This document shows positions 1-35,962 of a stretch of 64,000 nt of DNA, piece by piece (within the stretch, counting starts at the first letter, position 1; every line of letters begins with the position of its first letter). Position numbers and translations under genes: made by a program. The stretch is from an uncultured Candidatus Saccharibacteria bacterium (lineage in GTDB: Bacteria; Patescibacteriota; Minisyncoccia; Phycocordibacterales; Phycocordibacteraceae): NCBI GenBank assembly GCA_964634595.1, contig CAZWKU010000001.1, positions 3,688 to 67,687 on the forward strand, in the 5' to 3' direction. A model generated the notes under the pieces. The model was not told where the DNA came from. It saw only the letters and a list, made by a program, of their open reading frames with translations, and searched no databases.

Positions 1-261
1 AGTGATCTGCCTAATGTCATCTACACTGTTGTTTGAGGCCGCGTCTATTTCGTACAGATCTTTTGCCGTGCAACCCACCTCACGCGCAAAGATGCGCGCA
101 AGCGATGTCTTGCCGAGCCCCCGGCTCCCAGCAAAAAGGTAGGCGTGCCCGATTTTCTTACTCTGAATAGCCTCCTCAAGCGGAGCAACCACCTGCTCCT
201 GCCCCATCACCTCTCCGAATTTTTGCGGGCGATATGCGCGATAGAGTGACTGCTCGGCCAT
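1..261 (-). CDS. dnaX: DNA polymerase III subunit gamma/tau, N-terminal fragment (continues beyond window start)
   Basis: Minus-strand translation from ATG at 261 gives MAEQSLYRAYRPQKFGEVMGQEQVV...HAYLFAGSRGLGKTSLARIFAREVGC, a clamp-loader AAA+ N-terminus with P-loop. The frame is open to position 1. Confidence 0.8.
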   Translation of the reverse strand, partial: MAEQSLYRAYRPQKFGEVMGQEQVVAPLEEAIQSKKIGHAYLFAGSRGLGKTSLARIFAREVGCTAKDLYEIDAASNNSVDDIRQIT

Positions 262-280
262 ACGAGACAGTATATAGGCG

Positions 281-1261
281 CTAGGCTCTAGGCACTAGCG
301 ACTCAAGTTCGGCTGCGCTTTCGGCCGCCATCAGCTTGGCACGGAGCTCTGCAGCGCCATCGAAACCTGTAACAAACGCTTTGATGTGTTTTTTAAGTAT
401 GGCAAATGATTTGGCTGGCGAGAGTTTTTCAAATGCATACGCGAGCTCTACGAGCGCGGCGAGTTTTTCTACAGTCTCTCGACTCTGCTCAGGATTATTT
501 TCGCTTCGCGCAAATAACCACGGGTTGCCGAAAATAGCGCGACCAAGCATCACTCCATCGCAACCCGTCTCTGCCACCCTAGCTTCTGCATCGGCTAAAT
601 CTTTTACATCACCGTTGCCTATCAAAAGCACGCTTGGATTAATTTTGTTTCTAATCTGTACCGCCTTTTGCATAAGCTCCCAGTGTGCGGGTACTGAGGA
701 CATTTCCTTGCGTGTACGCAGATGCAGCGTTATTGCCGCGGGCTCTGCTAAGAGAAGCTTCGGGAGCCACTCCTCAAGTACCTCGGTGTTGTAACCGATG
801 CGCGTTTTTACCGAGACCGGGAGCGTGGTCGCCGCTTGCGCGGCCCTAATTATCTCTACTGCAATCTCAGGGGTCTTAATAAGCGCCGCACCCGCCTTTT
901 GCTTTTCAATACTTCGGTCAGGGCACCCCATATTAATGTCGACACCATCGAAACCAAGCCCGTCCGCGAGCTTTGCGGCGTACGCGATCATCTCGGGTTT
1001 ACTCGAAAAAAACTGCGCAACCATCGGCCGCTCGGCCTCGCTGAACTGCAAATCACGCATCAAGGGATTCTCTATATTGAGGACTTTCTGAATCTCACGC
1101 AGGTGATACAGCCCGTCAGCCGAGACAAACTCTGTCCAGGTTACATCTGGCTTGCCATACTTAGCGATAAGCGCTCGGTACGCAGGGTCGGTCACGTCAG
1201 CCATCGGTGCCAGCACAAAAAAGGGTCTCGGCAACGCATCCCAAAACGAATTTTGCTTCAT
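281..1261 (-). CDS. tRNA-dihydrouridine synthase (Dus family)
   Basis: 326 aa. Contains LAPMADVTD, a GCP motif and the TIM-barrel flavoenzyme pattern typical of DusB-like proteins. Confidence 0.85.
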   Translation of the reverse strand: MKQNSFWDALPRPFFVLAPMADVTDPAYRALIAKYGKPDVTWTEFVSADGLYHLREIQKVLNIENPLMRDLQFSEAERPMVAQFFSSKPEMIAYAAKLADGLGFDGVDINMGCPDRSIEKQKAGAALIKTPEIAVEIIRAAQAATTLPVSVKTRIGYNTEVLEEWLPKLLLAEPAAITLHLRTRKEMSSVPAHWELMQKAVQIRNKINPSVLLIGNGDVKDLADAEARVAETGCDGVMLGRAIFGNPWLFARSENNPEQSRETVEKLAALVELAYAFEKLSPAKSFAILKKHIKAFVTGFDGAAELRAKLMAAESAAELESLVPRA

Positions 1262-2142
1262 ACTGTTGACTGCTGACTGTCTACTGTTTTCTTTTTTAAA
1301 TACACCTTGCCCGGGAAGCGCAAGTCAATATAGTCGAGTGCACCGCTTGAAAGATCGAGTTCACTTTTCGCTGAAATGAGATCAGCAAAAGCCGCAACTT
1401 CGCTACCCACCACATAGGTCACGCGTGTCCCGCTCGCAAGTATCAGATCAGCTTCGTCATCACGAAAAATAAGCTTTGTCACCGATGAGCCAAGCTCACC
1501 CACACGACGGGCGAAGTCAAACGCATCTGGGAGCGCCTCTGCGTGCTTAAGCGTAGCGCGCAGTGCGACCTCCCCACTCACCAGCGGGTCGTACACAGCA
1601 AATGAGTTCAATGTTGGGCTCGTTGACGCGGCCAGAGCAAAAATAAAACCCTCTGCATCAATGAAATAGCACTCCCCCTGCTCGGCACTTTCTGTACCAC
1701 CACACCACGTGGCGACCGCAGTGCGCCCATGCGTCTCGATAGCAATACTCGTGAGATTTATGCGACGCACGGAGACCGCCTGCACCCGAGCGTCGTGTGC
1801 AGCAAGTGCACGGCGTATTGCCCCAATGGGGAGAAAGAGTATCGAATCACGCGGGATAAGCCACGCATACGAACCGGTGAGAGCCGATGCGACCAGCGCT
1901 TCATGTTCAGTGTTCGCGGGCACTACCACAGTATGGGCAACGCGCACCGAGGGTTGCCAGGTAGCCCATACCCCCACCGCAAGTAGCACAATCGCGAGAA
2001 TGCTAAGAAGGATACTGAGTCGCTTGCGCGATCGGCGGCGGCGCTCCTTCAGTCGCCCCGTCTCACTCTCACTCACCCGGCGCTCTGATAACTTCTTTCC
2101 CCACATACTGAACCAAAGCCTCAGGCACACGAATCGAACCAT
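1258..2142 (-). CDS. ftsQ: cell division protein FtsQ/DivIB-like (POTRA domain). True start is probably the internal M near 2106.
   Basis: Has a basic N-terminus, one TM helix, then a POTRA-like segment (VRVAHTVVVPANTEHEALV...IRRALAAHDARVQAVSVRRINLTSIAIETHGRTAVATW). The longest ORF overlaps the serS stop. Confidence 0.55.
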   Translation of the reverse strand: MVRFVCLRLWFSMWGKKLSERRVSESETGRLKERRRRSRKRLSILLSILAIVLLAVGVWATWQPSVRVAHTVVVPANTEHEALVASALTGSYAWLIPRDSILFLPIGAIRRALAAHDARVQAVSVRRINLTSIAIETHGRTAVATWCGGTESAEQGECYFIDAEGFIFALAASTSPTLNSFAVYDPLVSGEVALRATLKHAEALPDAFDFARRVGELGSSVTKLIFRDDEADLILASGTRVTYVVGSEVAAFADLISAKSELDLSSGALDYIDLRFPGKVYLKKKTVDSQQSTV

Positions 2143-3413: not shown

Positions 3414-4268
3414 ATGGAGATGCAAACACTGCTTCGCGAGGACTTCCCCGGTGGGCTAGGGGAGCTACCACAGCCACCTGAAAAGCTCTGGCTCATGGGC
3501 ACACTCCCACCTGCGGGCACTAAATACCTAGCCGTTGTAGGCTCACGTGCGATGACGCGCTATGGACAAGAGGTGTGTCAAAAACTAATCGCCGGTCTTG
3601 CCGGCTACCCTATTTCTATAGTTTCAGGTCTCGCTCTTGGGGTAGATACCTGCGCGCATAAAGCGGCACTTGCAACGGGGCTCCACACGATCGCCTTCCC
3701 GGGTTCGGGAGTCGATGAGACGGTGCTTTACCCGCGCTCTAACCGCTCCTTCTCACAAGAGCTCCTCAAGGCTGGCGGCGCGCTTATTTCTGAATACGAG
3801 CCGAAGACGGCCTCACGGGTGCATTTTTTTCCCGAGCGTAATCGCCTCATGGTGGGTATTGCAGATGCGGTCCTCGTGATTGAAGCAGGAGAGAAGTCAG
3901 GCACCCTGATCACCGCACGACTCGCCAGTGAATACAGTAAAGAGTTGCTTTGTGTCCCCCACCGCATTGGCGACCCGCACGCGTTTGGGCCACACCTCTT
4001 TATCCGCCTTGGCGCCGCGCTGGTCTCAGAACCCATACATATACTTGAGGCACTCAAGATCGCGCCGCGTGGCGAAGCCGCGCGTCTTGAAGCTCCCAAA
4101 CTCGAGGGCGTCGAGAAAGATGTCTGGGATATCTTGCAAGCGCCCAAAACACGTGACGAGATCGTCCGCGAGGCCGAAGCAGAGCCCGGTGCGGTGCTTA
4201 CTGCACTCATTGCTCTCGAGCTGCGCGGCATCGCACGCGAGGAGTTCGGCTCCTGGCGCCGCATTTGA
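3414..4268 (+). CDS. dprA: DNA processing protein DprA (Smf)
   Basis: Contains LAVVGSRAMTRYG and SGLALGVDTCAHKAAL, a Rossmann-like DprA core. Confidence 0.85.
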   Translation: MEMQTLLREDFPGGLGELPQPPEKLWLMGTLPPAGTKYLAVVGSRAMTRYGQEVCQKLIAGLAGYPISIVSGLALGVDTCAHKAALATGLHTIAFPGSGVDETVLYPRSNRSFSQELLKAGGALISEYEPKTASRVHFFPERNRLMVGIADAVLVIEAGEKSGTLITARLASEYSKELLCVPHRIGDPHAFGPHLFIRLGAALVSEPIHILEALKIAPRGEAARLEAPKLEGVEKDVWDILQAPKTRDEIVREAEAEPGAVLTALIALELRGIAREEFGSWRRI

Positions 4269-8182: not shown

Positions 8183-8294
8183 GACGTGCCTCCTCTTATT
8201 CATTACAATTTCCCACAACTATAATGCTCTACATTGGCACTGACGTCAAGTTTGTACCTTAACGCGTGCACGCGTTGTGCCTCCGAATATGAAA

Positions 8295-8330
8295 GCCACC
8301 TAAATCCTTTTTAGATTCAGGTGGCTTTTG
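8295..8330. terminator. intergenic hairpin (GCCACCTaAATC...GATTcAGGTGGC) followed by TTTT
   Basis: Imperfect 12-bp stem between two small minus-strand genes. The U-run follows on the plus strand. Confidence 0.35.
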
Positions 8331-8340
8331 AAGATCAGGC

Positions 8341-8541
8341 CTAGGCGGCACGCGCCCTCCTTGCGTCATTCCGCATGGCAGTGCATTGCATGGGATTGTC
8401 ATTTATCCACCCCAGAATCCCATGCTTGACCATAATCTTCCTGTCTTTCTTAGAGACCTCACATGGTCTATCGACCATTTGCCCACACGCCGTGCAGTAG
8501 ATGAGCACCACGTCCTGCTTACCAACGTTCATGTTACCCAT
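8341..8541 (-). CDS. small Cys-containing protein (possible zinc-ribbon), hypothetical
   Basis: 66 aa. AAGGGAGA RBS sits 6 nt before the ATG. Cysteines are spaced YCTACG...C...C. Confidence 0.45.
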   Translation of the reverse strand: MGNMNVGKQDVVLIYCTACGQMVDRPCEVSKKDRKIMVKHGILGWINDNPMQCTAMRNDARRARAA

Positions 8542-8587
8542 TGTAGTCTCCCTTGCTGATCTGCCAGAGTACAGTATACTCTAATTC

Positions 8588-10192
8588 ATGACACCCGTCA
8601 AGGACATCCTTGGGGATATGCAAAGCGCTCTTGAGAGTGATAGAGCGCTCGTTGAAAAAGCGTACGTATTTGCAAGCAAAGCGCATGAGGGGCACGTGCG
8701 GTATTCAGGTGAGCCTTACTTCATTCACCCCGCGGCCGTGGCAAAAATCCTGGCTGAAATGGGCATGGACGCAACCACTATTATCGCAGGGCTCCTCCAC
8801 GACGCTGTTGAAGATGCACGCACTACGGCCGAGACGGTTGAACGAGAGTTTGGCAAAGAGGTACTCTTTTTGGTTGAGGGAGTAACCAAGCTCGGCAAAC
8901 ACAAGTATCGTGGCGCTGAGCGCCATGCAGAGTCTTTACGGCGCCTCCTAGTTGCGACCGCATCTGATATTCGCGTACTTATCGTGAAGCTCGCCGATCG
9001 TTACCACAATATGACGACGCTCAAGTACGTACCTGAAGCAAAGCGTCGCCGCATTGCGCTTGAAACAATAGAGATCTACGCACCCATAGCCGACCGCCTC
9101 GGGATGGGAAAACTGAAGCGCGAACTTGAGGATCTTGCTTTCCCCTTCATTGACCCCGATGCCTACGCGCACACTATAGAGGTCCGTAAGCTCGCAACCA
9201 AAGAGACCGAGCCCGGGCTTGCAAAAGTCCAGAAAGAGCTCCGTCATGAACTTGCAAAAAAAAGTGTACGCGATTTTAAGACCGATCTTCGTATCAAGGG
9301 ACTCTGGAGTCTACACCAGAAGCTCCTGCGCAAACACGACGATATAACTAAGATCCACGATATCGCCGCGTTGCGTATCATCGTACCCACCATAGACGAC
9401 TGCTACAGTGCGCTTGGGGTCGTACACGCCTTGTATAAACCGCTCCCGGGCGAATTTAAAGATTACATCGCGTTTGAAAAGCCAAATGGCTACCGCTCAC
9501 TCCATACCACCGTACTCACCAAAGATGCAGGCGTTGTCGAGATACAAATACGTACTGAAGAGATGCATCGCGATGCACAGTACGGTATCGCCTCACACAT
9601 GAGCTACAAACAGCTTGGCAAGGAGGCACCGCGAAACTACTTCTCTGCCCTCTCCTTTACCTGGGTGCGTGGTCTGATACCCTCTCTGCTTAATTTTCGC
9701 CGTAAATCAGAGCCGGGAGTAACCGTATCTGCCCCTACAGCCGCAAAACACGCCCCACCACCTACGTGGCTGGCTGAGCTGGCTGAGGCGCACACCGATA
9801 TCGCGAGCTCAAAAGAGTTTGTCGACGGGCTTAAAGAGGATTTCTTTTCACATCGCGTGTTTCTGTTTACCCCGAAGGGCGACGTGGTCGACCTGCCACA
9901 CGATGCCACCCCTATCGATTTTGCCTATGCTATTCACAGCGATCTGGGCAACCATATGCAGGGCGCTAAGGTAAACGGCAAGCTGGTCTCTTTTGATACT
10001 CCGCTCGGGAATGGTGACGTGGTCGAGATTATGCGTCGCGATTCAGCACGCCCATCGCCCAAGTGGCTTGACGCCGCAAAAACCACTATGGCACGCAAAT
10101 ATATTCGCAGTGCACTCGGGCTCGCCGAACAAGAAAAAGTGCGCGGGCTTGATTCTACAGGGGTGCGTAAAGCTAAACCACGAAATTCTTAA
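8588..10192 (+). CDS. relA: bifunctional (p)ppGpp synthetase/hydrolase Rel/SpoT homolog (short form with HD, synthetase and TGS domains)
   Basis: HD motif HDAVED, RelA/SpoT synthetase block, and a TGS domain (GDVVDLPHDATPIDFAYAIHSDLGNHMQGAKVNGK). 534 aa with no ACT domain. Confidence 0.9.
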   Translation: MTPVKDILGDMQSALESDRALVEKAYVFASKAHEGHVRYSGEPYFIHPAAVAKILAEMGMDATTIIAGLLHDAVEDARTTAETVEREFGKEVLFLVEGVTKLGKHKYRGAERHAESLRRLLVATASDIRVLIVKLADRYHNMTTLKYVPEAKRRRIALETIEIYAPIADRLGMGKLKRELEDLAFPFIDPDAYAHTIEVRKLATKETEPGLAKVQKELRHELAKKSVRDFKTDLRIKGLWSLHQKLLRKHDDITKIHDIAALRIIVPTIDDCYSALGVVHALYKPLPGEFKDYIAFEKPNGYRSLHTTVLTKDAGVVEIQIRTEEMHRDAQYGIASHMSYKQLGKEAPRNYFSALSFTWVRGLIPSLLNFRRKSEPGVTVSAPTAAKHAPPPTWLAELAEAHTDIASSKEFVDGLKEDFFSHRVFLFTPKGDVVDLPHDATPIDFAYAIHSDLGNHMQGAKVNGKLVSFDTPLGNGDVVEIMRRDSARPSPKWLDAAKTTMARKYIRSALGLAEQEKVRGLDSTGVRKAKPRNS

Positions 10193-11171
10193 CCGAGTAC
10201 AGGTCGTCACCCTCAGGTGCCGCTGGTTTCGAATCGACGTGCGTCGTATTGGGGAAGACGGGTGGCGGCACCTCGGTAGTGTTTGGGCTGTTACCGCCAA
10301 GGTAAACTTGGGGCGACTCACTTGCCTGCTCGAGAGCCTCGCGCGCGGCGAGCGAAGACACGAGCACTGACAGATCTTCGGGCGAAAAGAAGTCGATCAT
10401 CAACCGACCACCCTGCTCATTTGCCTCGATAATGACGCGCGTGCCAAGTGTCTCGGTCAATGTTTTTTCTATTTCGCTCATTTCGGGGCTTTTACGGTGA
10501 TGCTTGCGCACACGATCTTGGGCGATAGATCGAGCTATCTGTTCGGCAGCACGCACCGTCATCTTTTTAAGCACAATTTCTCTAAAGAGCGTCTCCCGCT
10601 GTTCGGGCTTTTCATTAAGCGCTAAGAGAGCGCGCGCGTGACCCTCGGTCACCTCTTTATCAACAATCGCCTGTTGCATATACTCAGGCAAGGAGAGTAG
10701 TCGCACACTGTTTGAGACAAACTCACGGCTCTTCCCTATCTTTGCCGCCACTTGCGCGTGGGTGAGACCAAACTCCTTGATAAGTTGTTCGAGCGCTTTG
10801 GCGCGATCGACTGCATTTAGGTCTTCACGCTGCAAATTTTCAATAATCGCGAGCTCGAGCTTGGTGAGATTGTTCTCGCCTTGGCGAATAACTGCCGGTA
10901 TAGCCTGCAGGCCAATTAATTTGCACGCGCGGAGCCTTCGTTCACCCGAGATCAGCTCGTACTCACTCCCCAGACCCCCGTCTGGCTTTTGCACGTCACT
11001 ACGGGTCACTACGATGGGCTGCAAGACGCCGTACTGGCGTATCGACTCACCCAAGGCGCGCAATTTATCATTATCGAACTCGCGCCGTGGCTGGTAGGGG
11101 TTTGGCTTAATCTTGTCGACCTCGATCCAAAAAATCGAGTCGTATTTGGTGGGTACATACGTATCGCTCAT
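10173..11171 (-). CDS. parB: chromosome partitioning protein ParB/Spo0J
   Basis: ParB box (LQPIVV...ISGERRLRACKL) and an HTH. Confidence 0.9.
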   Translation of the reverse strand: MSDTYVPTKYDSIFWIEVDKIKPNPYQPRREFDNDKLRALGESIRQYGVLQPIVVTRSDVQKPDGGLGSEYELISGERRLRACKLIGLQAIPAVIRQGENNLTKLELAIIENLQREDLNAVDRAKALEQLIKEFGLTHAQVAAKIGKSREFVSNSVRLLSLPEYMQQAIVDKEVTEGHARALLALNEKPEQRETLFREIVLKKMTVRAAEQIARSIAQDRVRKHHRKSPEMSEIEKTLTETLGTRVIIEANEQGGRLMIDFFSPEDLSVLVSSLAAREALEQASESPQVYLGGNSPNTTEVPPPVFPNTTHVDSKPAAPEGDDLYSVKNFVV

Positions 11172-11390
11172 GAAAAATATATTACCACGTGTCAGGGAGA
11201 GACATGGTCACGCATAAACACTGCTGTGTTTTGCGCGACCCCGGCTCGGCATCGCTTTGCGATATGCCTGCGCTATTCAAGTCTCTCACGCACCATGCGC
11301 AGGCATGGTGCTCCCCGGCACAGCGTTCACTTTGCTCACGTCTGTGCCGGGGGAGTTCGTCTTCGAAAGAACTTTATACAGACGCACTAG

Positions 11391-11473
11391 GACAGATACA
11401 GAATCGAAATGGTCAGAATTTTCCCGCGCGGCGGCTACCGCCGCGTAGAGGGGATGCGCCGTGCCAGAGACTT
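11391..11473. repeat. left arm of long inverted repeat (83-bp core, outer end GACAGATACAGAATCG)
   Basis: Reverse complement of 13478-13560 with 4 mismatches. Degenerate similarity continues inward to about 11555. Confidence 0.85.
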
Positions 11474-11644
11474 TAGTTCGAGAATACAAACCCAAACCCA
11501 AAGATTTTTTGAAGAAAAGAGAAGCGAATTTTTTGGCGGGGAGAGAGGGGAATACCTGAAGCCCGTAGTGTGCTTGCCCCACCCTCCGTGCGCGCACCAG
11601 CCCCTTCGCCGAGCTTTGGTTCTCGTCGAAGCTCCCTAAAATTT

Positions 11645-12181
11645 CTATCCTCTCTTTTTCCGACTGCCGTTACCTGCCTTTCTTTGGGCTTTCATTTGAG
11701 CGAGTATATTATCTCGTCGAATATCGGCGACATAATCAATTTCTGTTAAGGACGGGATACGGAAGCTCATCACCGTGCAATCATTGCGACTGGTGATCAC
11801 AAAGTCGCCGAGCGTGATGATGTCCATGCCGATAAGCACATCAATCGGGGAGTCGTCCCCCAAATTTCCTTCCGTTACCACTACATTCTGAACCATTACG
11901 TTGCTCGGCAGGGCGACGTTGACGAGATAGGTATCTTTGATGTCGCTACCATTTGCCGTGTTCACTTTCTTTTTGCCCGTGGGTTTCAAACCGAGATGGG
12001 CAACCACTTTAGGAGTGATGACCGAGCCGGTTGCGCCGGTATCCCAAATGCCCTTGAATGTCCCAATGACGAGATCTTTCTGATCTCGTATATCGCCTAA
12101 AAACGGCATGCAAATACCGACTTCACTTTGTAGAACGAGTAATTTCCCATTCTGGCCTCGTATTGTTAAGGCACTCGGCAT
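11645..12181 (-). CDS. retropepsin-like (clan AA) aspartic protease, module copy 1
   Basis: 178 aa. Active-site block KGIWDTGATGSVIT and a downstream hydrophobic-Gly motif (VLIGMDIITLGDFVI), typical of single-domain retropepsin-like proteases. Confidence 0.65.
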   Translation of the reverse strand: MPSALTIRGQNGKLLVLQSEVGICMPFLGDIRDQKDLVIGTFKGIWDTGATGSVITPKVVAHLGLKPTGKKKVNTANGSDIKDTYLVNVALPSNVMVQNVVVTEGNLGDDSPIDVLIGMDIITLGDFVITSRNDCTVMSFRIPSLTEIDYVADIRRDNILAQMKAQRKAGNGSRKKRG

Positions 12182-12190
12182 AGAAGGAAA

Positions 12191-12436
12191 TTAGATAGAC
12201 ACTCGAGAATAGAATGTCTGGGTGTAGTTTTCTGCTCCGGGCTCGACGCGCTGAATAAGGAATGTACCGAGCTCGTTATCTTTCTGCGCCCCCTCGTATG
12301 CCTCAATCTCTGAATCGTATGAGCCGATGACTTGCTGATTTTTTATCACCACAAATTTCCCTTCGTATTTCGCAACGAGTTCTTTTTGATGTGTGGTGTA
12401 GTATTCGAACTCCTTTGTGAGGGGGTCAGAAGCCAT
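12191..12436 (-). CDS. small partner protein of the aspartic-protease module (copy 1), hypothetical
   Basis: 81 aa, 10 nt upstream of and co-oriented with the protease. Homologous to 45809-46012 (KFVVIKNQQVIGSYD...TFLIQRVEPGAENY vs KWVALSKDNKKVIAYD...TFMKVPASDVY). Confidence 0.5.
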   Translation of the reverse strand: MASDPLTKEFEYYTTHQKELVAKYEGKFVVIKNQQVIGSYDSEIEAYEGAQKDNELGTFLIQRVEPGAENYTQTFYSRVSI

Positions 12437-12522
12437 ATACAGGTAACTATATCATAGTGGGTATTAGAGAACCACACGCGCCATAGTCGGGCTGTATACT
12501 GTCGTTATGCGATATTTTCTCT

Positions 12523-13480
12523 ATGCGCGCAAAAGCGCGACAAGGGCATTTCCCCGGCACTGCGCCATTTGGGTATTTGAATAATCCAGCGACTAAAACT
12601 ATCGTGGTTGATCGCAAAAAAGCTCCTATCGTTAAAGCCGCCTTCGAGCTCTACTCTAAAAACGATTCGACCTTAGACGACATCTCTCAATTTCTTTTTA
12701 ACGGCGGCGTCAAAAGCTATGGCGGCTTTGCTCTCCATAAAAACCGCATCAAGTTCGTTCTCGCCAATCCATTTTATTATGGGCAGTTTTTGTATGGTGG
12801 TGAATTGTATGAAGGAAAGCATTTGCCACTCATCACCAAGGCTTTGTTCGATAAAGTGCAAAAGGTGATGCTTGAGCGAAGCCATCCGCAAGTCTTTAAA
12901 GTACAACCTCAAGCATTTTGCGGCCTCATGTTTTGTGGAGAGTGCGGTTTTATGATTACCGCCGAGAAACAAAAAGGGCATGTGTACTATCGCTGTACCA
13001 AAAAAGCGGCGCTTCGCTGTTCACAACGCTATACCCGTGAAGAACAACTCGCCGCCGATTTTTCCGACCTCATTAGTATGTTTGTCCTGTCCGAGAAATG
13101 GGCACGAGATTTTGAGCATCGTATGAAAATTGATAGTCGCGAGTCCGGTCGGACGACTGCCGAGGCAGTCGCAAGGTTCAGGAGTGAGATAGTGGAGATA
13201 GGCCAGAAGCTCGATCGTCTTATGGATCTCTATATTTCGCAGGATATTGAGCGCGACTTGTATTTGGCAAAACGTCGCGCGCTTATGTCCGACAAGCGGA
13301 CGAAGGAGGAGCAAATCTTGAGTTTGGAGAAGAACAGCTCTGCATGGCTCGAACCGATGTCCAGGTGGATAAATGAGGCAGAAAATCTAGCCCAAATACA
13401 AAATGCCCCCTCTCTCCCCGCCAAAAAATCCGCCCTTCAAAAAATCTTCGGCTCGAACCTGAAACTCCAAAACCAAAAAG
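12523..13480 (+). pseudogene. large serine recombinase remnant with the N-terminal resolvase catalytic domain missing
   Basis: Begins inside the alpha-E linker (RAKARQGHFPGTAPFGY), then the recombinase domain, a zinc ribbon (CGECG...YYRC...C) and a coiled coil. Only 86 bp lie upstream before the divergent gene, so there is no room for a catalytic domain. The listed ORF reads on through the repeat and tRNA by chance. Confidence 0.85.
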
Positions 13481-13560
13481 TCTCTGGCACGGCGCATCCA
13501 CTCTACGCGGCGGTAGCCGCCGCGCGGGAAAATCCCGACCATCTCGATTCTGTATCTGTC
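13478..13560. repeat. right arm of long inverted repeat, abutting the 3' end of tRNA-Leu(CAA)
   Basis: 95% identical (79/83) to the reverse complement of 11391-11473. Contains the hairpins CGCGGCGG-tag-CCGCCGCG and CGGGA-aaa-TCCCG. Confidence 0.85.
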
Positions 13561-13561
13561 G

Positions 13562-13645
13562 TGGTGCCGGGGGAGAGACTTGAACTCTCAAGACTTGCGT
13601 CGGTGGGTTTTGAATCCACTGCGTTTACCATTTCGCCACCCCGGC
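13562..13645 (-). tRNA. tRNA-Leu (anticodon CAA), class II
   Basis: Minus-strand sequence GCCGGGGTGGCGAAATGGTAAACGCAGTGGATTCAAAACCCAC...GAGAGTTCAAGTCTCTCCCCCGGCACCA. Anticodon loop UUCAAAA, long variable arm, T-arm GAGAG/TTCAAGT/CTCTC. Confidence 0.8.
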
Positions 13646-13732
13646 AATATGCATATCCTACGCCAAAAACGGCTTTTTGAGAATTGTGTGAGCCGTGCTA
13701 CCTTGCACCCAGATCGAACAAGGAGAACTGTT

Positions 13733-16108: not shown

Positions 16109-16939
16109 ATGACTATCCTCTGCATCATAGGTCCTACCGCCTCAGGCAAATCTGCTCGAGCAGTAGAGAGTGCCCTCGCACAAGGTGGGGAGGTAATATC
16201 GGTAGATTCGCGACAAGTGTATCGCACCCTCGATATTGGGACTGAAAAGATTTCTCATGAAGAAGCGAGGGGAGTGCCCCACCACCTTATCGATATACGC
16301 GACCCTGAAGAGTCGTACTCTGCAGGCGACTTTGTGGCTGACGCAACCCGCCTTATTGGTGAGATACATGCGCGGGGCAAGCTCCCCATTCTCGTAGGCG
16401 GCACGCATTTTTATTTCGACGCACTCATCAATGGGCTCCCTGCGTCAGTACCACCCAATCCTGCTCTCCGTAGAGAACTTGCTGCAGTTCCATATATGGA
16501 GCTGTATGAAATGGTGAAAAAAAAAGACCCGCGCCGTGCTAAAGAGCTCGACCCCAACAATCGCCGTCGCCTTGTCCGCGCGCTTGAGATCATCGACGCG
16601 CTCGGCACCGTACCCACGAGAGTTGCGCATAAAAAAATCATCGACCCAGAAATGGAGATCACGTGGGTGGCAGTGAACCCCCCACCAGCAGAGCTGAAGC
16701 AACGTATTGAGGCGCGCCTCAAGGCCGCGCTCGCGCGCGGCCTTGTTGAGGAGGTGCGCCGCGTGCAAGAGCGCGTGGGAGAGGCGCGCCTCAGAGAGTT
16801 TGGGCTTGAGTATAAGGTGGTCGGAGAGCATCTACGGGGCGAGCGCGCCGAAGCATCGCTCCTCCCCGCCCTCTCTGCAAAACTGTGGCAGTATGCCCGC
16901 AATCAAAAAGCATGGCTTAAAAAACTCACCTCGCCCTGA
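16109..16939 (+). CDS. miaA: tRNA dimethylallyltransferase
   Basis: GPTASGKS P-loop and DSRQVYRTLDIGTEK. Confidence 0.9.
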   Translation: MTILCIIGPTASGKSARAVESALAQGGEVISVDSRQVYRTLDIGTEKISHEEARGVPHHLIDIRDPEESYSAGDFVADATRLIGEIHARGKLPILVGGTHFYFDALINGLPASVPPNPALRRELAAVPYMELYEMVKKKDPRRAKELDPNNRRRLVRALEIIDALGTVPTRVAHKKIIDPEMEITWVAVNPPPAELKQRIEARLKAALARGLVEEVRRVQERVGEARLREFGLEYKVVGEHLRGERAEASLLPALSAKLWQYARNQKAWLKKLTSP

Positions 16940-17951
16940 TATTTTCGCAATCACGTGTTACGAGCACATCCCAGTGCGTACTCTCACGCACCCACACATT
17001 ACCGCATCCGTCTTCGTATGAAGGCCCGCCCCCGTCACCTGCGCGCTGTCCGGCATACTTTAACTGCCCAGAGTCATATATTTTACCAACGGGAGGCGTA
17101 CGGCAGGGCCCTCCGCAGGCAAAAGTGTCTAGTTGTGGCGTGTCAGCAAGATCAATCTTGTAGCCGCTCGCGTGACTCTGCGCGCCCGAAGCGTGCCCGA
17201 GTTCAGAGCCGCCTGTAATCATAGTCGCAGAGCAAAAAGTCCCGCATGCTAAGCGTATTTTTTTTGCGTACGAGATAGTGGCAGGTTGCAAACCGCCCAC
17301 ATCAGTACAGCCACCCGGTACACTTTGATAGGGGGTGTCGGGGGGGCACCATGATTTATTTACCAATACCCCAGTCGAGCCCAAATTAGAGCGTACACTA
17401 TTTTCAAGCGCCTGCTTTTGAGCGGCCGTGGTACCTGACGGGGGCTTTGGTGTGGTGGTGGTAGTGATAGGCGGTGCATTCGAGATAGGTGGCCGTGGTG
17501 TAGGCAAGATCTTGGGGAGACACACGTTCGCACCGCCTGAAGTAATTATTTCGTACCATTGTGTGCCGAAACCCTTTGCGCTTGGATCATAGAAAACCGC
17601 CATAACCGCCCCCACAATAACCCAGCCCGACAACGCTACAACCAACCCGATGACGAGATTCATGAGCATCTCTTTTGCCTTTGACTTGCCCGATGGGCTG
17701 ATGGGGTTAAAAACGAGCAAGAAGCCCGCATAGGCTATCACCAGGGGCGCGATAAAAAAGATCAGGATGCTAAGCCCAAAGAGAATAAGGTTATTGATGA
17801 CAAGGAGCACAGCACCCCACCCAAGTGCATTCACTCCATCGCTACACTCTGGGACGATGGGGCCAAAAAAAGGTATCGATTTAGCGCTGGCAACAAGGGG
17901 GAGGACAAATACCAAAATAGCTACCGCCGTGGTGCGAACACGATGAGACAT
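16926..17951 (-). CDS. pilin-like two-TM domain fused to a Pro/Thr-rich linker and a Cys-rich extracellular C-terminal domain
   Basis: The N-terminal 130 aa share the conserved block of the 33561-35962 array (KAKEMLMNLVIGLVVALSGWVIVGAV vs EKGRNLMLWGLIGFFVMVSVWGLV). Then PTPRPPISNAPPITTTTTPKPPSGTT, then a Cys-rich domain. Confidence 0.5.
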   Translation of the reverse strand: MSHRVRTTAVAILVFVLPLVASAKSIPFFGPIVPECSDGVNALGWGAVLLVINNLILFGLSILIFFIAPLVIAYAGFLLVFNPISPSGKSKAKEMLMNLVIGLVVALSGWVIVGAVMAVFYDPSAKGFGTQWYEIITSGGANVCLPKILPTPRPPISNAPPITTTTTPKPPSGTTAAQKQALENSVRSNLGSTGVLVNKSWCPPDTPYQSVPGGCTDVGGLQPATISYAKKIRLACGTFCSATMITGGSELGHASGAQSHASGYKIDLADTPQLDTFACGGPCRTPPVGKIYDSGQLKYAGQRAGDGGGPSYEDGCGNVWVRESTHWDVLVTRDCENIRAR

Positions 17952-17997
17952 AGCTTGTATTGTAGCACCTAGAAATCTCTGCTATCGTTTAACCCAC

Positions 17998-18068
17998 GGG
18001 TCCATCGTATAGTGGTAGTACAGCGGTCTCCAAAACCGCTAGCGTAGGTCCGATTCCTACTGGACCCG
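17998..18068 (+). tRNA. tRNA-Trp (anticodon CCA)
   Basis: GGGTCCA acceptor, anticodon stem GCGGT/ACCGC with loop CUCCAAA, T-arm GTAGG/TCCGATT/CCTAC. Confidence 0.85.
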
Positions 18069-18070
18069 CA

Positions 18071-27000: not shown

Positions 27001-28239
27001 CTAGAACTGATCTGTCGATTGTGGAGGATTTGATGGGGGCTGCGGCGGAGCAGGAGGAGTAGGCTGTGATGGAGCAAAAGTCATCTTCGGGATTTTTGGT
27101 TTCAGCATAAGCCCGAAGAGCGTGATTAGTACGAGAGCGGCGAAGCCCATGCCAGCCCAAGGTAGCCAGGGATACATTTCTGTAAGACGACTTTCTCCCG
27201 GATCGCACACGTCACCAATGCCATCGCCATCAGTATCTGTCTGATTTCGATTCGGGTCTTCCGGACAGTTGTCGCGGTCGTTTATGAGGCCATCGCGATC
27301 AAAGTCGTCGCAGGCGTCTCCCCTGCCATTTGTATCTACATCTCTCTGGTCATCATTTGGTACAGAAACACAGTTATCAAGAGTATCTGGGATGCTGTCA
27401 GTGTCGGTGTCGGCGGGTTTAAAAGCCGGATTTTCGACCAGACGAGCTGATTCGAGTCGCAAGATATCGACTGTGCCAGCAAGATTGCCCGACTCCCCTA
27501 CGGGTGGGCGGACGTATCGGTCGGGATCGAGGTACAGACGGTAGCTCTCTTCTGGTTTGGCCAAGAAACGCACTGCGCTCGCGCTCGCGACCGTCGCGTT
27601 TTCCTGACGTAGCTTTATTTCTGTGATGCGCAATGGTTGTCCGTAGGTAAGGCTAAACGTCCACGTCTTTGAAGTAGTCTTTGGGAAGAGGATGTCCGCA
27701 CTCGTGGGGCGCGTCGCCGCCAACACTATCACTCCGCCGTCTTTGCGAATGGTAACGGACGTCGGGAGTGCGACATTTGCGTCGAGAAGAAGGGTGAGGG
27801 ACGAGCTCGTCACTGGGCTCACGCCCGTCAGCACTATTTCTACCTTACCCTGCCCTGTTTCTGGAAGCGAGAACTCGCGGAAAGTGAGCACATTATTGTC
27901 GAGTAGGGCCGAGAGGCTTGATGCTGCACTGCCTACTTGCGATACGGTTTGTGCAGAAAGCGCAATCTCGTTTTTAATACGTTCAGAAATGAACAGCGTC
28001 GGCTCAAATCCCCCGGTCGCAACATCGATGAGCGCGACATCAGTACGATTTAGTTCTATCCCCGTAAGCGGTACCTCAACCACGGTAGGGACTTTAATTG
28101 GAAACGTGCCAAGTTCAACGTAACTCTGAAAGACCGACGCAACATCCGTAGGTGGTGGCGTTGGGGGAGTAGCCGCTGCAAATGATGGAGCGGCAAAAAG
28201 AAGGCTCGCAAAAACACCGGTTACAAGGAAATTACGCAT
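27001..28239 (-). CDS. secreted/anchored protein with thrombospondin type-3 (calcium-binding) repeats and a C-terminal TM anchor
   Basis: Signal peptide [26 protein letters not shown]3 repeats [49 protein letters not shown]-terminal hydrophobic helix and a Pro-rich tail. Trimmed from 28365 to avoid overlap with the upstream gene. Confidence 0.6.
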
Positions 28240-29977
28240 GGTCTCTTGTTCTTTCTTCAATAATACGGGGCTCGCTTCGCTTACCCAAAAACGCCGTACC
28301 AATAAGGAGCGCGCCGATGAGGAAGAAGGTGATGATACGCCCTGTGAGCTCCATCTTCCAAACATCGACCATTAACAGCCGTGCGACTACTATCCCCAAG
28401 AGGATACCTCCGTAGAGGAGGAGGCCTCGCTTTTCTTGCGTGCGACCCATGAAATAGGTAGTAATACCTATCACGGTATACACCACAAGTGCAATCATGG
28501 TAGCCAGGTCGTCGTTGGTGAGACCAGCATGGAGCGAGAGCCAGAGAAGTATGTATGCGTAGGCTGAACCGGCAACGAGAAGCAGAGCATTACCCGATCG
28601 GTCTTCAGAGTTTCCTGACGACTGTTTTACAAAGTAGCTCCCCAGAACAAGGAGCGCGACCGCAAGCACCGCGAGAACGAAAAATTCATCGTGAACAACC
28701 CCCTGCCTCCATGCAGGCGACGCAATGCTCTCAAACGACAGCACACCAGGGATAATAAAAAGAGCGCACAGTCGCCGTGCGATTCTTGTATCTTGGAGAA
28801 GCGCGCTCGCGATAAGTGGCAGCACCGCACTCTCGAGCGTTAAGGCAATGATCAGTGCCGACCCCTGAAGCTCGAACGCAGTGGCTGCCCCCAAGAACAC
28901 CACGCCAATACCCGAATACACAAAGAATGGCTCACGACGGCCCGTGGCCTGACAAAGCACAAACGCTCCTACCACAAATATAAGCATCCATGCAGCAACA
29001 CTAAGACTCTGCCACTCGGGTGATACGCCGTAGAGGATCCACGTAAGTAGAAAAGCGCCGTTCCCTGCTGCCGTAAGGAGGTCGGCGCTGTAAGAATTGT
29101 CCTTGAGCTTCATCAGGCTCACGGTGTTGGTGACAAAGAAGATTGCGGCAAAGGCGTAGGCAAACAGGAGCACCGTATCGCGATCAGCGCTGTTAAAGAG
29201 GTACGGGAGAGAGTAAAACGCGACCAGGATAAGCGCTGCAAAAGTAATATCTTTCATCCCGCTTACTGCAACTACCCACACCGCACCGAGCACCACTACC
29301 ATGAGGTACGCGAAGAGCAAAACAGTGTCAGACGTTCGGTCATCAACAAGAAAGGGAGCGATACCTGCGAGCACTAAGCTCGCAAGTGCAAGCGCACGAC
29401 TCTTGTAGAGAGCCGCGGCGGCGGCAACAAAGACGGTACTCAAGAACATGACACCGAGCGCCGATGCTGGTGTAAAAAAATCATACAGCGTGCGAGCGGC
29501 AAACAGAGTAAGGAGGATAGTGGTTGAACCCACCACCAAGAAGATTCCACCCTGGTGAATGCGCGTGCGAATACGCCACCACCCAAGGCCGATAAAGAGC
29601 ACACCCCCCGCAATGCCAAGGAGGATGCGCCCTTGCTCTCCTATCCAATTGTTTAAAAACGCATACGTGGTCAACCAGCCAAAACCGATAAGCAAGAGGA
29701 GCGCGCCAAGTTTCATCAGCCAATCCTCAGCAAGCCAAGCAAAAAAGGCGTTTGGCGCTGGTGCCGTCGTTTCAGTATCTACTACGCTTTCTTGAAGTCC
29801 GCTCTGTCTGGGAGCATGGGTCTCGTCAAGAGAAGTGGCGCTGGCAGTAACTGGAGCAACACTCGCCTGCCCTGGCCTACTCTGCAGGTTTTTAAGTTGT
29901 CGCTCAAGCGCATTTACCCTGCTGTGCACATGCACAAGTACCGCCACAAAGATGACTAAAAGCAAGGTGAAGATCAT
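28232..29977 (-). CDS. polytopic membrane protein, DUF2339-like
   Basis: 581 aa with an N-terminal helix/coiled coil followed by more than 12 TM helices. Confidence 0.5.
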
Positions 29978-33560: not shown

Positions 33561-33839
33561 TTAAAAAAGCCCGGTGATTCTTTGCACTGACGGCACATCA
33601 TTGAAGGTGCTGGTCACGAGATCGAGTATCCCGTATACCCCGAAAATAATACCGAGCCCGATAAGCCCCCACATAATAGCCTCACGCCCCTCCTTACGCG
33701 CCGTCCCGTCCTCTGCATGCATTATAAATTTAACCACTCCCCAGATAAAGAGTACGAAGGCAACCGCCGCAAGGAGAAGGAGTACCGGGTTAACGATCTC
33801 AGTGACGACCTTTTTCAAAAAGGCGTCTAGGGCAGACAT
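33561..33839 (-). CDS. small two-TM pilin-like membrane protein (array member 6)
   Basis: 92 aa with the conserved block NPVLLLLAAVAFVLFIWG...KEGREAIMWGLIGLGIIFGVYGIL. Confidence 0.5.
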   Translation of the reverse strand: MSALDAFLKKVVTEIVNPVLLLLAAVAFVLFIWGVVKFIMHAEDGTARKEGREAIMWGLIGLGIIFGVYGILDLVTSTFNDVPSVQRITGLF

Positions 33840-33841
33840 GG

Positions 33842-34207
33842 TTAGGTGCCAATGCCGCCAGTTACCGGATACTCTAACGGGCTTTCATCAAGTGGTACCG
33901 TATTCTTGATGATGTTCACGAGCCCCCAGACCGACACCATGACGAAAAATCCTATCAAGCCCCAGAGCATAAGATTACGACCCTTCTCTTTAACCTCATC
34001 ATTTGCGTAGCCCACGATAAAGGTCTGAAAGGCGCCCCACACAAAGACGATAAACGCGATAGCGAAGAGAACAGGTACCACTACATCATTGATGGTGTTG
34101 ATGATGAGACTACCGACCTCGCCGAGGTTGCTAACGACCGTTTGTGCCGAGGCAACAAGCGGGAAGGTCAAGAGGAGTCCGGCACCGATGGTAAGGGCTT
34201 TTTTCAT
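33842..34207 (-). CDS. small two-TM pilin-like membrane protein (array member 5)
   Basis: 121 aa. Signal peptide, then VVPVLFAIAFIVFVWG...EKGRNLMLWGLIGFFVMVSVWGLV. Confidence 0.5.
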   Translation of the reverse strand: MKKALTIGAGLLLTFPLVASAQTVVSNLGEVGSLIINTINDVVVPVLFAIAFIVFVWGAFQTFIVGYANDEVKEKGRNLMLWGLIGFFVMVSVWGLVNIIKNTVPLDESPLEYPVTGGIGT

Positions 34208-34277
34208 AATATGTATAAGTAATAACTAGAGTAATGATAGTCTGCCGCTAGATAAAGGCAATGAGCTCGTGTGGATA

Positions 34278-34814
34278 TCAGAGCTTCGGGTACGGCAAGG
34301 TGGAGTCAGATCTGGGGCCAACGCCTACATTCAAGAGCTCAACCCCCACATTTACTAGCCCCCAAAGTGAAAAGATAATAACGAAACCAATGACCCCATA
34401 GAGGACGAACTGCTTCCCCTCTTCGTGGTTTTTGTCGCTATCTCCCCCCTTGATAAAGTAGTTGTAGACTCCCCACAAAAATACAATAAAGGCAACAGCC
34501 GTGAGTAAGGGGACAAGGATATCGTTAATAAAGAACTTGATGTCGTTTGCGAAGCCTGCAAGGCGGGAGGTATTCAGCACGCCACCTCCCCCGCCACCAC
34601 CTGGCGCCTGACCTGTGCCTGTACTAGTCCCACGCACACAGGTGCCAGCCTTGCTCCCCTGCGGAAATTGAGTGTCGCAAGCCTCACCTGCAAGTGCCGA
34701 GCAGTCAGAAGCAGTATTGCACCCGGCTCCAACCGTAGCACTAGCAGTAGCGGGCAGCGCACTGACCCCTATCGAGCATGCAAAGAGAAGTGCAAAGAGC
34801 AAGAGTTTGCTCAT
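34278..34814 (-). CDS. pilin-like membrane protein with a Cys/Gly-rich N-terminal extracellular region (array member 4)
   Basis: Start MSKLLLF (trimmed from 34937). CNTASDCSALAGEACD...GGGGGGG, then LVPLLTAVAFIVFLWG...EEGKQFVLYGVIGFVIIFSLWGLV. Confidence 0.5.
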   Translation of the reverse strand: MSKLLLFALLFACSIGVSALPATASATVGAGCNTASDCSALAGEACDTQFPQGSKAGTCVRGTSTGTGQAPGGGGGGGVLNTSRLAGFANDIKFFINDILVPLLTAVAFIVFLWGVYNYFIKGGDSDKNHEEGKQFVLYGVIGFVIIFSLWGLVNVGVELLNVGVGPRSDSTLPYPKL

Positions 34815-34822
34815 AGTAGCTA

Positions 34823-35272
34823 TCAGATAGAGGCTGGGTACGGCGGACGCCCAATGCCCGCGAGGCCGAAGGTGTTTGCCACCACGAACACCAAACCCCA
34901 CACCGAAAGCATCACCACAAACCCGACAATCCCCCAAAGTATTAGCTGGTGAGCATTTGCCACCTCCTCTTCACCTCGCTTAAAGATGTAAGCGCGAAAG
35001 ACCCCCCACAAAAAGACAATGAAGGCTACCGCAAAGACGAGCGGCACTAAAACAAAATTGATCAACCAGATAAATTGACCGGCTACAACGCAGATCGTAT
35101 TAGTGCCGCATCCAAGCGTAAACGAGCCGATGCCTCCAACGCCAGAGCCCGACCCGATGCCAAAAAACCAACCGCCAGAGCCTACCCCGCCGACCACACT
35201 GGTCTGTGCCGCGGCAAGAACGGGAGTAAGAAAACTAAGTGTTGAGATTGTGATGCGGGTAAATATGTTCAT
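34823..35272 (-). CDS. pilin-like membrane protein with a Gly-rich N-terminal region (array member 3)
   Basis: 149 aa. Signal peptide, Gly-rich stretch, then LVPLVFAVAFIVFLWG...HQLILWGIVGFVVMLSVWGLV. Confidence 0.5.
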   Translation of the reverse strand: MNIFTRITISTLSFLTPVLAAAQTSVVGGVGSGGWFFGIGSGSGVGGIGSFTLGCGTNTICVVAGQFIWLINFVLVPLVFAVAFIVFLWGVFRAYIFKRGEEEVANAHQLILWGIVGFVVMLSVWGLVFVVANTFGLAGIGRPPYPASI

Positions 35273-35279
35273 GGCTCTA

Positions 35280-35534
35280 TTATGCAGGAGCCAGCCCCAG
35301 CGTGTCTAGGAGGATATACACTAACCCCCACACCGAGAACATAACAACCATCCCAAGAATACCCCAGAGCACAAACTCCCTCCCGTGGCGTCGGCCTTCG
35401 TCAGTGCCTGCTTCAATAAAAAAGAACCGTACTATCCCATACACTATGTATGCGAAGGCAAGCGCAATAATCGCTGGTATGACAAGCGTGTTTATAGCAC
35501 CCACGAGGCTCTCAATAAAAGTACGAAAGGTCAT
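35280..35534 (-). CDS. small two-TM pilin-like membrane protein (array member 2, start trimmed)
   Basis: VIPAIIALAFAYIVYG...RHGREFVLWGILGMVVMFSVWGLV. The longest ORF (to 35624) would overlap member 1. Confidence 0.45.
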   Translation of the reverse strand: MTFRTFIESLVGAINTLVIPAIIALAFAYIVYGIVRFFFIEAGTDEGRRHGREFVLWGILGMVVMFSVWGLVYILLDTLGLAPA

Positions 35535-35962
35535 GAGCCAACACTCAAAGCCTGCACGGTGGCCTCTATCCCAAGAGCAATGGCTTTCGAGCCAAGCAAG
35601 ACAAGTGCCCCGATAAGAGTCCACAGGAGTGCCTGTCGGGCCTCGGCTATTTTGTTCGGCTCATGAGAGTGGAGGACAAAGAGGTAGCCTATATATACCA
35701 CCATAAATACAATCGCTACCGAGCCAATGCGTATCACGAAATCAAGGATCTTGTTGAGGAGGTTCAAGATACAGGTCTGTACTGGAGTGCCCGTAGGGCA
35801 ACCACCCTGCAAAGGGTTTATGAGTTGTGTGCTTGGCGGTGGCATAAGATTGCCCGGCAATGAGCTTGGTGGTGGGACGAGCTGTGCAAACGCAGGGGTA
35901 ACGATAAAGAAAGAGAGAAGGACGACCGCTGACACTGTTTGTAGTATTTGCAAGCGTTTCAT
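35531..35962 (-). CDS. pilin-like membrane protein (array member 1, most divergent)
   Basis: 143 aa. Signal peptide, Pro-rich segment, then VAIVFMVVYIGYLFV...ARQALLWTLIGALVLLG. Confidence 0.4.
   Translation of the reverse strand: MKRLQILQTVSAVVLLSFFIVTPAFAQLVPPPSSLPGNLMPPPSTQLINPLQGGCPTGTPVQTCILNLLNKILDFVIRIGSVAIVFMVVYIGYLFVLHSHEPNKIAEARQALLWTLIGALVLLGSKAIALGIEATVQALSVGS

Follow-up and report, generated by a model that had tools for sequence, protein, structure and literature searches.

The 64,000-nucleotide window analyzed here (the whole stretch from position 3,688 to 67,687 of contig CAZWKU010000001.1, assembly GCA_964634595.1, from an uncultured Candidatus Saccharibacteria bacterium) contains a gene of 341 codons with an ATG start, which we call the fusion gene and whose product we call the query. 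It encodes a pilin-like membrane hairpin (N-module), a Pro/Thr-rich linker, and a Cys-rich C-terminal domain (C-domain) predicted to adopt the lysostaphin/D-Ala-D-Ala peptidase/Sonic hedgehog (LAS) fold (Table). The gene order in the window is clpB, rpmG, tRNA-Trp, the fusion gene, convergent miaA, and ahpC, onward to parB. Public assemblies contain a protein identical to the query (P0001), encoded on an 87.6-kb contig, and the query has 69 homologues, the closest non-identical one at E 3e-71; the gene is therefore real. The 3' end of the fusion gene overlaps by 14 nt that of miaA, whose product belongs to the IPPT family in the identical contig, and an array of six pilin-like genes begins 15.6 kb away, in agreement with the overlap and the distance of about 16 kb given in the original prediction. 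The tRNA-Trp gene sits on the plus strand between rpmG and the fusion gene, both of which are on the minus strand (interval 17952..18069). An extended -10-like element, TGcTACAAT, finishes 7 nt ahead of the ATG, which is not preceded by a recognizable Shine-Dalgarno sequence; the mRNA of the fusion gene might therefore be leaderless. Scanning for promoters and terminators by consensus gave nothing above the shuffle expectation.

Table. Coordinates of the fusion gene, its predicted parts, and other features of the window (HMM, hidden Markov model; ORF, open reading frame; AF2, AlphaFold2; a slash in a sequence marks the cleavage site).
Feature	Position (nt)	Strand	Basis
Fusion gene, 341 aa: pilin-like hairpin, Pro/Thr linker, predicted LAS-type peptidase domain	16926..17951	-	ORF list, homologues
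Sec-type signal peptide, residues 1-23 (..LPLVASA/KSIPFFGP)	17883..17951	-	Read from sequence
Mature N-module, residues 24-144, VirB2/T4SS_pilin-like helical hairpin	17520..17882	-	Profile matches, AF2 model
Pro/Thr-rich linker, residues 145-175 (LPKILPTPRPPISNAPPITTTTTPKPPSGTT)	17427..17519	-	Read from sequence
C-domain, residues 176-341, 8 Cys, predicted LAS (Hedgehog/DD-peptidase, M15-like) zinc-peptidase fold	16929..17426	-	
Motif T246-G-G-S-E250-L-G-H253...S-H260-A-S-G263-Y-K265-I-D267; H-x6-D, proposed metal-ligand pair	17151..17216	-	
Motif E323-S-T-H326-W-D328; proposed catalytic base and third metal ligand	16968..16985	-	
Six VirB2/T4SS_pilin-like genes, paralogues of the N-module (92, 121, ~174, 149, ~85-114, and 143 aa)	33561..35962	-	PF18895, N-module HMM
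Closest paralogue of the N-module within the array	35531..35962		
SBP_bac_8 solute-binding-protein-like gene, directly upstream of the array and overlapping its start	35959..37263	-	Pfam E 7e-17
miaA, convergent with the fusion gene	16109..16939		
tRNA-Trp	17998..18069	+	
Insertion between parB and pyrF	11645..13680		
Retropepsin-like aspartyl protease within the insertion	11645..12181	-	
Large-serine-recombinase fragment	12523..13680	+	
tRNA-Leu	13562..13645	-	
Possible second retropepsin-like aspartyl protease, 145 aa	45361..45798	-	
Probable surface protein, 454 aa	27001..28365	-	
DUF2339 membrane protein	28232..29977		

The A-x-A site of the signal peptide and the mature N-terminus IPFFGPI(I/V)P that follows it are common to relatives of the fusion gene. 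The AF2 model of the N-module, with a predicted local distance difference test (pLDDT) score of 82.6, consists of two long helices (residues ~46–81 and ~86–120) joined by the loop NPISPSGKSKAKE, in which the hairpin block comprises residues 62–80 and 91–116. A signal peptide and two hydrophobic helices with a short basic loop between them are the layout of VirB2/TrbC-type proteins. Outside the hairpin, two flanks of the N-module are conserved, namely IPFFGPIVP..C36 and W132..ITSGG..C144. The linker, with its core Pro/Thr stretch PTPRPPISNAPPITTTTTPKPP at residues 150–171, lies directly after the pilin module where it had been predicted; it is variable and unalignable across relatives, and it is at the linker that C-terminal domains are exchanged. 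The query is thus not a small protein made of a hairpin only, as residues 145–341 form a linker and an enzyme-like domain. Its Cys residues are at positions 36, 144, 202, 215, 236, 240, 279, 283, 316, and 335; the C-domain is indeed Cys-rich, but it has eight Cys residues and not the approximately ten ascribed to it, ten being the number in the entire protein. The Sec signal peptide, the hairpin topology, and these eight Cys residues support an extracytoplasmic location. The original prediction was thus right to treat the C-domain as a globular unit of its own, rich in disulfides and situated outside the cytoplasm.

On profile evidence, the N-module is homologous to the pilin-like proteins of the array. 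All six array genes matched the type IV secretion system (T4SS) pilin family PF18895 (T4SS_pilin) with E-values between 1e-5 and 2e-9, and the first one additionally matched TrbC/VirB2. The query itself scored 17.4 bits with PF18895 (E 0.0047), below the Pfam gathering cut-off of 26.6 bits, 10.7 bits with TrbC (PF04956), and 20.6 bits against a cut-off of 40 (E 2.7e-4) with NF045849, the NCBIfam model of a pilin-like conjugal transfer protein. In pairwise comparison, its identity to the array proteins is weak, at 23–29% (BLASTP E 7e-5 to 0.02). PF18895 was matched by 59 of the 69 relatives (best E 1.4e-12). When the N-modules of 68 relatives, but none of the array sequences, were made into an HMM, it picked up all six array proteins (E 3.6e-11 to 1.6e-4) and nothing else among the window's 621 six-frame ORFs, the next-best of which had an E-value of 0.92. 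The array proteins scored 17.7–39.7 bits with this HMM, whereas the highest score among 1200 composition-matched shuffles was 10.7 bits, which rules out a generic likeness in transmembrane composition as the cause of the similarity. The PF18895 matches among the relatives, the N-module HMM, and the shuffle control together indicate that the homology to the array is real; the lack of alignment support that the original prediction had named as its refutation was not observed.

Even so, the query is not simply a seventh array gene, as had been proposed. It shares with the PF18895 arrays of Patescibacteria the signal peptide, the two-helix hairpin, the short basic loop, homology at the profile level, and the phylum, but it is longer by ~200 C-terminal residues (linker and presumed enzyme) and has, in addition, conserved segments outside the hairpin and a pair of Cys residues. 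The segments without a counterpart in the array proteins are IPFFGPIIP after the cleavage site, the Cys before GWG..VINN, and W..LITSGG..C after helix 2. The gene also lies outside the array with no virB4 nearby, and the N-module, at 45–59% identity, is much better conserved than array pilins are mutually (~25%; PMC12102498). The query scores below the PF18895 cut-off, and because its N-module belongs to a distinct pilin subfamily found always fused, its description as one more array copy does not hold, whereas its homology to the wider family does.

The predicted model of the C-domain (pLDDT 89.8) has the LAS fold, with the central antiparallel sheet of that alpha/beta fold. Its structural matches were the Sonic hedgehog (Shh) N-domain (scores of 6.6 and 6.3), Drosophila Hedgehog (6.1), MepA (5.4), the VldE catalytic domain (5.4, with 25% identity, the highest among the matches), VanX (5.1), the Streptomyces albus DD-peptidase (4.5), and LysB4, VanYB, Ply500, VanXYc, LdcB, and the T5 endolysin (~3.4–4.2). 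A Foldseek search against the Protein Data Bank (PDB) returned no significant match; its top rows were histidine-kinase ATP-binding domains with a TM-score of ~0.25, which we took as noise.

Two conserved motifs might constitute the active site. The first contains the H-x6-D pair H260/D267, the defining motif of Hedgehog and DD-peptidases (PMC6027127), together with H253 seven residues upstream of H260, the first proposed ligand. The second, in which H326-W-D328 stands where DD-peptidases have H-x-H, may supply the catalytic base and the third metal ligand; P0016 and P0067 are among the few relatives with H-W-H. The spacing E323-x2-H326 resembles the ExxH motif characteristic of VanX and VanY. 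Among the 150 best C-domain representatives, mutually less than 50% identical, E250, H253, H260, G263, D267, and D328 are invariant (150/150), and K265 (149/150), H326 (149/150), and E323 (148/150) are nearly so. The mature query has three His residues, all within this conserved set. Aligned with hhalign, TGGSE.GH..SH..GYK.DL fell on the Shh segment at E 0.021, which serves as a register check only. The alignments of the C-domain profile with paralogous LAS-like tails (E 0.068, 5e-4, 0.17, and 0.21) are weak and likewise informative only of register; in the one at E 5e-4, the E323-H326-D328 motif aligns with NEGNHLHV of one paralogous C-domain class. Fold and conserved motifs taken together suggest that the C-domain is a divergent LAS-type zinc peptidase, which would bind zinc and be active. 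The family is large: in an exhaustive profile search, the C-domain turned up in 2541 clusters (50% identity), of which 1643 reached E<=1e-10. A word-indexed homologue search with the C-domain alone gave none despite the existence of true relatives, and we treated this result as a failure of the index, not as absence.

These observations bear directly on the original proposal of a tip adhesin. In a tip or surface adhesin, a non-catalytic C-domain on a pilin-like stalk would bind, for example, host peptidoglycan or another surface ligand, using the fold in a Hedgehog-like manner. A Cys-rich extracellular domain on a flexible linker would suit such a protein. However, pseudo-enzymes normally lose catalytic residues, and the full H / H-x6-D / E-x2-H-x-D set is invariant in 148–150 of the 150 representatives. 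Sister fusions, moreover, bear bona fide catalytic families (SLT, CHAP, and VanY); peptidoglycan hydrolases are interchangeable on the N-module in relatives. The analogy with minor pilins and adhesins holds for type IV pili and does not transfer to a VirB2/TrbC-type secretion pilin: the query has neither the prepilin-peptidase site (G/F or M...E5) nor the single N-terminal helix of type IV pilins, but a Sec-type A-x-A site (..VASA/KS) and two membrane helices, and it matches only VirB2/TrbC-type models. We therefore regard an adhesin as very improbable. Structure prediction and comparison, the very route by which the original prediction was to be checked, thus point away from it. Its second check, on whether relatives encode the C-terminal domain by itself, had a positive outcome: the C-domain is encoded alone in about 15 of the 150 best representatives, as stand-alone secreted proteins of 150–200 aa made of a signal peptide and the domain.

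The relatives of the query reveal one carrier with many tails. The N-module is common to 68 of the 69 homologues (29–59% identity), and the query-type C-domain occurs in 22 of them by BLAST and in 23 members of the tail clustering. In all, at least eight tail classes were found on the N-module: SLT_3 lysozyme-like (24 members), the query-type LAS-like domain (23), VanY-like (7), a second LAS-like type with ..AVDL..NHLHV (5), SLT (3), CHAP/NlpC-P60 (3), and further LAS-like motifs in a pair and a singleton (2 and 1 members). Four of the non-query classes match Pfam wall-hydrolase families (SLT_3, SLT, VanY, and CHAP/NlpC-P60), and in three more, LAS-like motifs were read by eye. The Pfam families found among the tails are SLT_3, SLT, Lysozyme_like, Transglycosylas, VanY, CHAP, and NLPC_P60; Pfam detected no SLT/lysozyme or CHAP-NlpC/P60 domain in the query, where relatives carry such domains on the same N-module. 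No bare hairpin was found among the members of the N-module subfamily, and because every member found is fused, this pilin subfamily appears to be a dedicated carrier of peptidoglycan hydrolases. Conversely, the N-module is present in 106 of the 150 best C-domain representatives. P0165 combines the pilin, SLT, and the query-type domain on a single chain. P0167, a metagenome protein of 746 aa, unites SBP_bac_8, T4SS_pilin, and the query-type C-domain on one chain; this fusion mirrors the solute-binding-protein gene adjoining the array and hints at a functional link between solute-binding protein, pilin, and LAS-like domain. The solute-binding-protein gene of the window itself is tied to the fusion gene solely via P0167 found elsewhere. 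The relatives found in genomes all belong to Patescibacteria, and viral contigs yielded none.

The fusion gene belongs to the chromosomal core of a Patescibacteria (candidate phyla radiation, CPR) bacterium. The order clpB-rpmG-[gene]-miaA-ahpC-parB is kept across relatives only 33–46% identical, yet the occupant of the slot between rpmG and miaA differs. In the related loci L001–L003 and L014 it is a LAS-type fusion, and in L016 an SLT fusion. Two fusions stand in tandem in L006, one of LAS-like type and one with SLT_3 (67..2042, plus strand), and likewise in L015, where the query LAS type and the lysozyme type have N-modules 64% identical (10848..11729, plus strand). These differing occupants imply that the cargo has been exchanged in situ while carrier and locus persisted. 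In L014, a Tse3-like muramidase gene (8237..9130, minus strand) adjoins the fusion gene. Neither the window nor any of eight related loci showed a T4SS locus around the fusion gene. We also considered that a T4SS or a mobile element might be hidden nearby and rejected this, as the large ORFs of the window that were scanned are all housekeeping genes except for an unrelated recombinase fragment 3 kb off.

Such a neighbourhood raises the question of whether the VirB2-like hairpin is a mere anchor and the query a housekeeping autolysin that would remodel its producer's wall as the cell grows or divides, with no link to pilus or secretion. The conserved synteny and a 64-kb window without T4SS core genes fit this explanation, as do the stand-alone secreted representatives without a hairpin (about 15 of the best 150). 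VldE, a septal L,D-endopeptidase with a similar layout of module, linker, and catalytic domain, offers a precedent (PMC11667670). Against a plain anchor stands the carrier itself: each of the 68 N-module subfamily members found is joined to a wall hydrolase, with at least eight kinds represented, and a mere anchor would not need segments as strongly conserved as IPFFGPIIP, GWG..VINN, IAYAGFL, and W..LITSGG..C. The replacement of a peptidase by a glycosidase in one slot would be odd for a single defined housekeeping step, and the P0167 fusion connects the domain to an array-linked solute-binding protein. On balance, we consider a purely housekeeping autolysin rather unlikely.

We favour a reading in which the query is an extracytoplasmic peptidoglycan peptidase held on a VirB2-like tether, with a VirB1-like job of opening the wall. 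It is supported by the predicted fold, the conserved active-site set, the domain swapping with wall hydrolases, the extracytoplasmic location, the pilin homology, the precedent of Southlakia epibionticum described below, and the lack of a recognisable VirB1 in most Patescibacteria genomes with VirB2-like genes (PMC12102498), and as a joint reading we judge it somewhat better than an even bet. Its first part, a membrane-anchored LAS-type wall peptidase, seems likely to us; a role linked to a T4SS is tentative and falls a little short of even chances. In this scheme, the Sec signal peptide (residues 1–23) would be cleaved off, and helices ~46–81 and ~86–120 would insert into the membrane as a VirB2/TrbC-type hairpin with the short Lys-rich interhelix loop on the cytoplasmic side. 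Both ends of the hairpin would lie outside, probably clamped by a C36–C144 disulfide, and the ~30-residue Pro/Thr linker would keep the ~165-residue disulfide-rich domain outside the membrane. The outer domain would be a divergent zinc metallopeptidase of the LAS family (Hedgehog/DD-peptidase, MEROPS M15-like), with H260, D267, and either H326 or D328 as putative metal ligands and E323 and H253 as putative catalytic residues, and its most likely substrate might be the peptide stem or a cross-link of peptidoglycan. The pilin-like module might serve as a membrane tether beside, or co-assembled with, VirB2-like pilins, rather than as an adhesin stalk, and the enzyme might open the wall locally for a pilus or type IV secretion machinery, as VirB1, PrgK, TraG, and CwlT do elsewhere.

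Several observations weigh against this interpretation. No M15/LAS family profile in Pfam, NCBIfam, or PHROGs matched the C-domain at E<=1, and the C-domain profile had no match among PDB sequences at E<=10; the lone single-sequence match in the PDB, the fatty-acid/retinol-binding protein 2w9y, was at chance level (E 2.2) and is not a LAS protein. The C-domain has H-x-D instead of the canonical H-x-H. Hedgehog, the top structural match, is mainly a ligand, and Drosophila Hedgehog, among the top matches, has lost the metal motif. The PF18895 score of the query itself is under the Pfam cut-off. Neither virB4 nor another T4SS core gene (virB6, prgI) was found in the 64-kb window, and the conserved housekeeping neighbourhood is equally compatible with a general autolysin and with a T4SS-linked enzyme.

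A bolder explanation takes the pilin homology literally: the query might be a minor subunit that co-polymerizes with the array pilins and displays, on an outward C-terminus, an enzyme attacking the peptidoglycan of the bacterium that serves the epibiont as host. The F-pilus structures place the C-terminus of VirB2/TraA-type pilins at the outer surface of the pilus, so that a cargo borne on a linker is geometrically possible. The N-module is homologous to VirB2-like pilins, and in one orthologous slot, the enzyme has been swapped between lineages with the N-module staying 45–59% identical, the pattern expected if host walls of varying makeup exerted selection. We also count in favour of this idea that it was in a phage tape-measure protein that MT3 domains of the VldE type were originally recognized (PMC11667670), and VirB2-like pilin arrays are essential for the epibiotic growth of Southlakia epibionticum (PMC10633639). 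However, a pilus of these proteins has never been seen, we found no literature precedent for a 165-residue cargo on a pilin, and a housekeeping context with no nearby T4SS genes lends no support. The conserved outside segments and the Cys36–Cys144 pair, which have no array counterpart, might even indicate that the module has left a polymerizing role. We consider such an armed subunit unlikely. The broader proposition that Patescibacteria build VirB2-type pili or pilus bases with dedicated carrier pilins, on whose outward C-terminus wall-degrading enzymes (LAS peptidase, lysozyme/SLT, CHAP, and VanY-like domains) are interchangeable, is improbable enough that we offer it as a speculation. If true, the filament would be an enzymatically armed tool to breach the host bacterium's wall, the swapping of cargo to suit host wall chemistry would be concentrated at the rpmG-miaA slot as a hot spot, and the apparent lack of VirB1 in most of these genomes would be accounted for.

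Several known systems resemble parts of the preferred tethered peptidase. VldE (Spr1875) MT3, the LAS-family L,D-endopeptidase of Streptococcus pneumoniae (PDB 9flh), has the ligands H301, D308, and H375, with R294 seven residues ahead of H301 (PMC11667670). The query shares with it the H-x6-D pair, the C-terminal His motif, a residue seven positions upstream of the first His (H253 for R294), and the arrangement of a targeting module, a long linker, and a C-terminal catalytic domain. Despite these likenesses, the two have no detectable sequence-profile similarity, the H-x-H of VldE is H-x-D in the query, whose Cys-rich domain shows no evident multi-zinc loop, and the N-terminal module of the query is a membrane hairpin where VldE has wall-binding LysM. 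With the Hedgehog/M15 proteins (VanX, VanY, MepA, the S. albus DD-peptidase, and phage L-Ala-D-Glu endolysins), the query has in common H-x6-D and the acidic residue and His of the last strand; it differs from them in lacking a Pfam M15 match, in having Lys for the Ala of SxHxxGxAxD and H-x-D for H-x-H, and in its four probable disulfides. PrgK (pCF10), TraG (pIP501), and CwlT (ICEBs1), hydrolases of monoderm conjugation systems with the VirB1 function, likewise combine an N-terminal membrane anchor with an extracytoplasmic wall-hydrolase domain, as the query presumably does, and their pairing of glycosidase and peptidase (cited in PMC12102498) is paralleled by P0165 and by the tandem pair in L015. 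In the query, however, the anchor is a VirB2-like hairpin and not a plain transmembrane helix, the gene lies outside a T4SS operon, and the catalytic domain is LAS-type and not SLT or CHAP.

A precedent comes from S. epibionticum, whose T4SS, the only one studied in Patescibacteria, and six-pilin array are essential (PMC10633639). Two further essential genes lie beside virB4 and the six PF18895 pilins (supplement of PMC10633639): SEML1_0007 resembles the query in that it encodes a Hedgehog/DD-peptidase domain, and the product of SEML1_0006 combines two domains of lysozyme-like type with one of the cysteine proteinase type.

Other features of the window also deserve mention. Between parB and pyrF, the window carries an insertion relative to L002, L003, L006, and L016, which holds a retropepsin-like aspartyl protease and a large-serine-recombinase fragment, with matches to the Recombinase and Zn-ribbon domains and none to a resolvase domain, whose 3' end overlaps tRNA-Leu; the insertion looks like a remnant of an integrated element. 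Judging from its DSGT motif (..ALVDSGTEVTVMD..), a protein of 145 aa encoded elsewhere looks like a second retropepsin-like aspartyl protease. A protein of 454 aa is probably located at the surface: it has calcium-binding repeats of thrombospondin type 3, and its C-terminal membrane helix is accompanied by a Pro-rich tail. Its gene overlaps the start of that for the DUF2339 membrane protein.

Pilins, LAS peptidases, and membrane-anchored T4SS hydrolases are already known, and our literature search found no paper on pilin-hydrolase fusions. Three findings are new here: the VirB2-like carriers form a conserved subfamily in which a wall hydrolase is always fused, the LAS-like domains form a large family that lacks annotation, and cargo is exchanged in cassette-like fashion in one chromosomal slot. 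The C-domain family, which escapes Pfam, NCBIfam, and PHROGs, should enter the databases as a new LAS/M15-like family, as the labels "pilin" or "hypothetical protein" on such genes mask a probable enzyme. VirB2-like arrays of 2–11 genes are widespread in Patescibacteria, and a recognisable VirB1 is absent from most of the genomes with VirB2-like genes, and on this ground a recent survey judged VirB1 dispensable for the putative pilus (PMC12102498). The mechanism of these arrays and of the T4SS, which are essential to epibiotic life, is not understood (PMC10633639, PMC12857230). The always-fused pilin subfamily is a concrete candidate for the missing wall-opening function, and the pilin-hydrolase fusions offer a handle on whether the pili of Patescibacteria act on the wall of their hosts.

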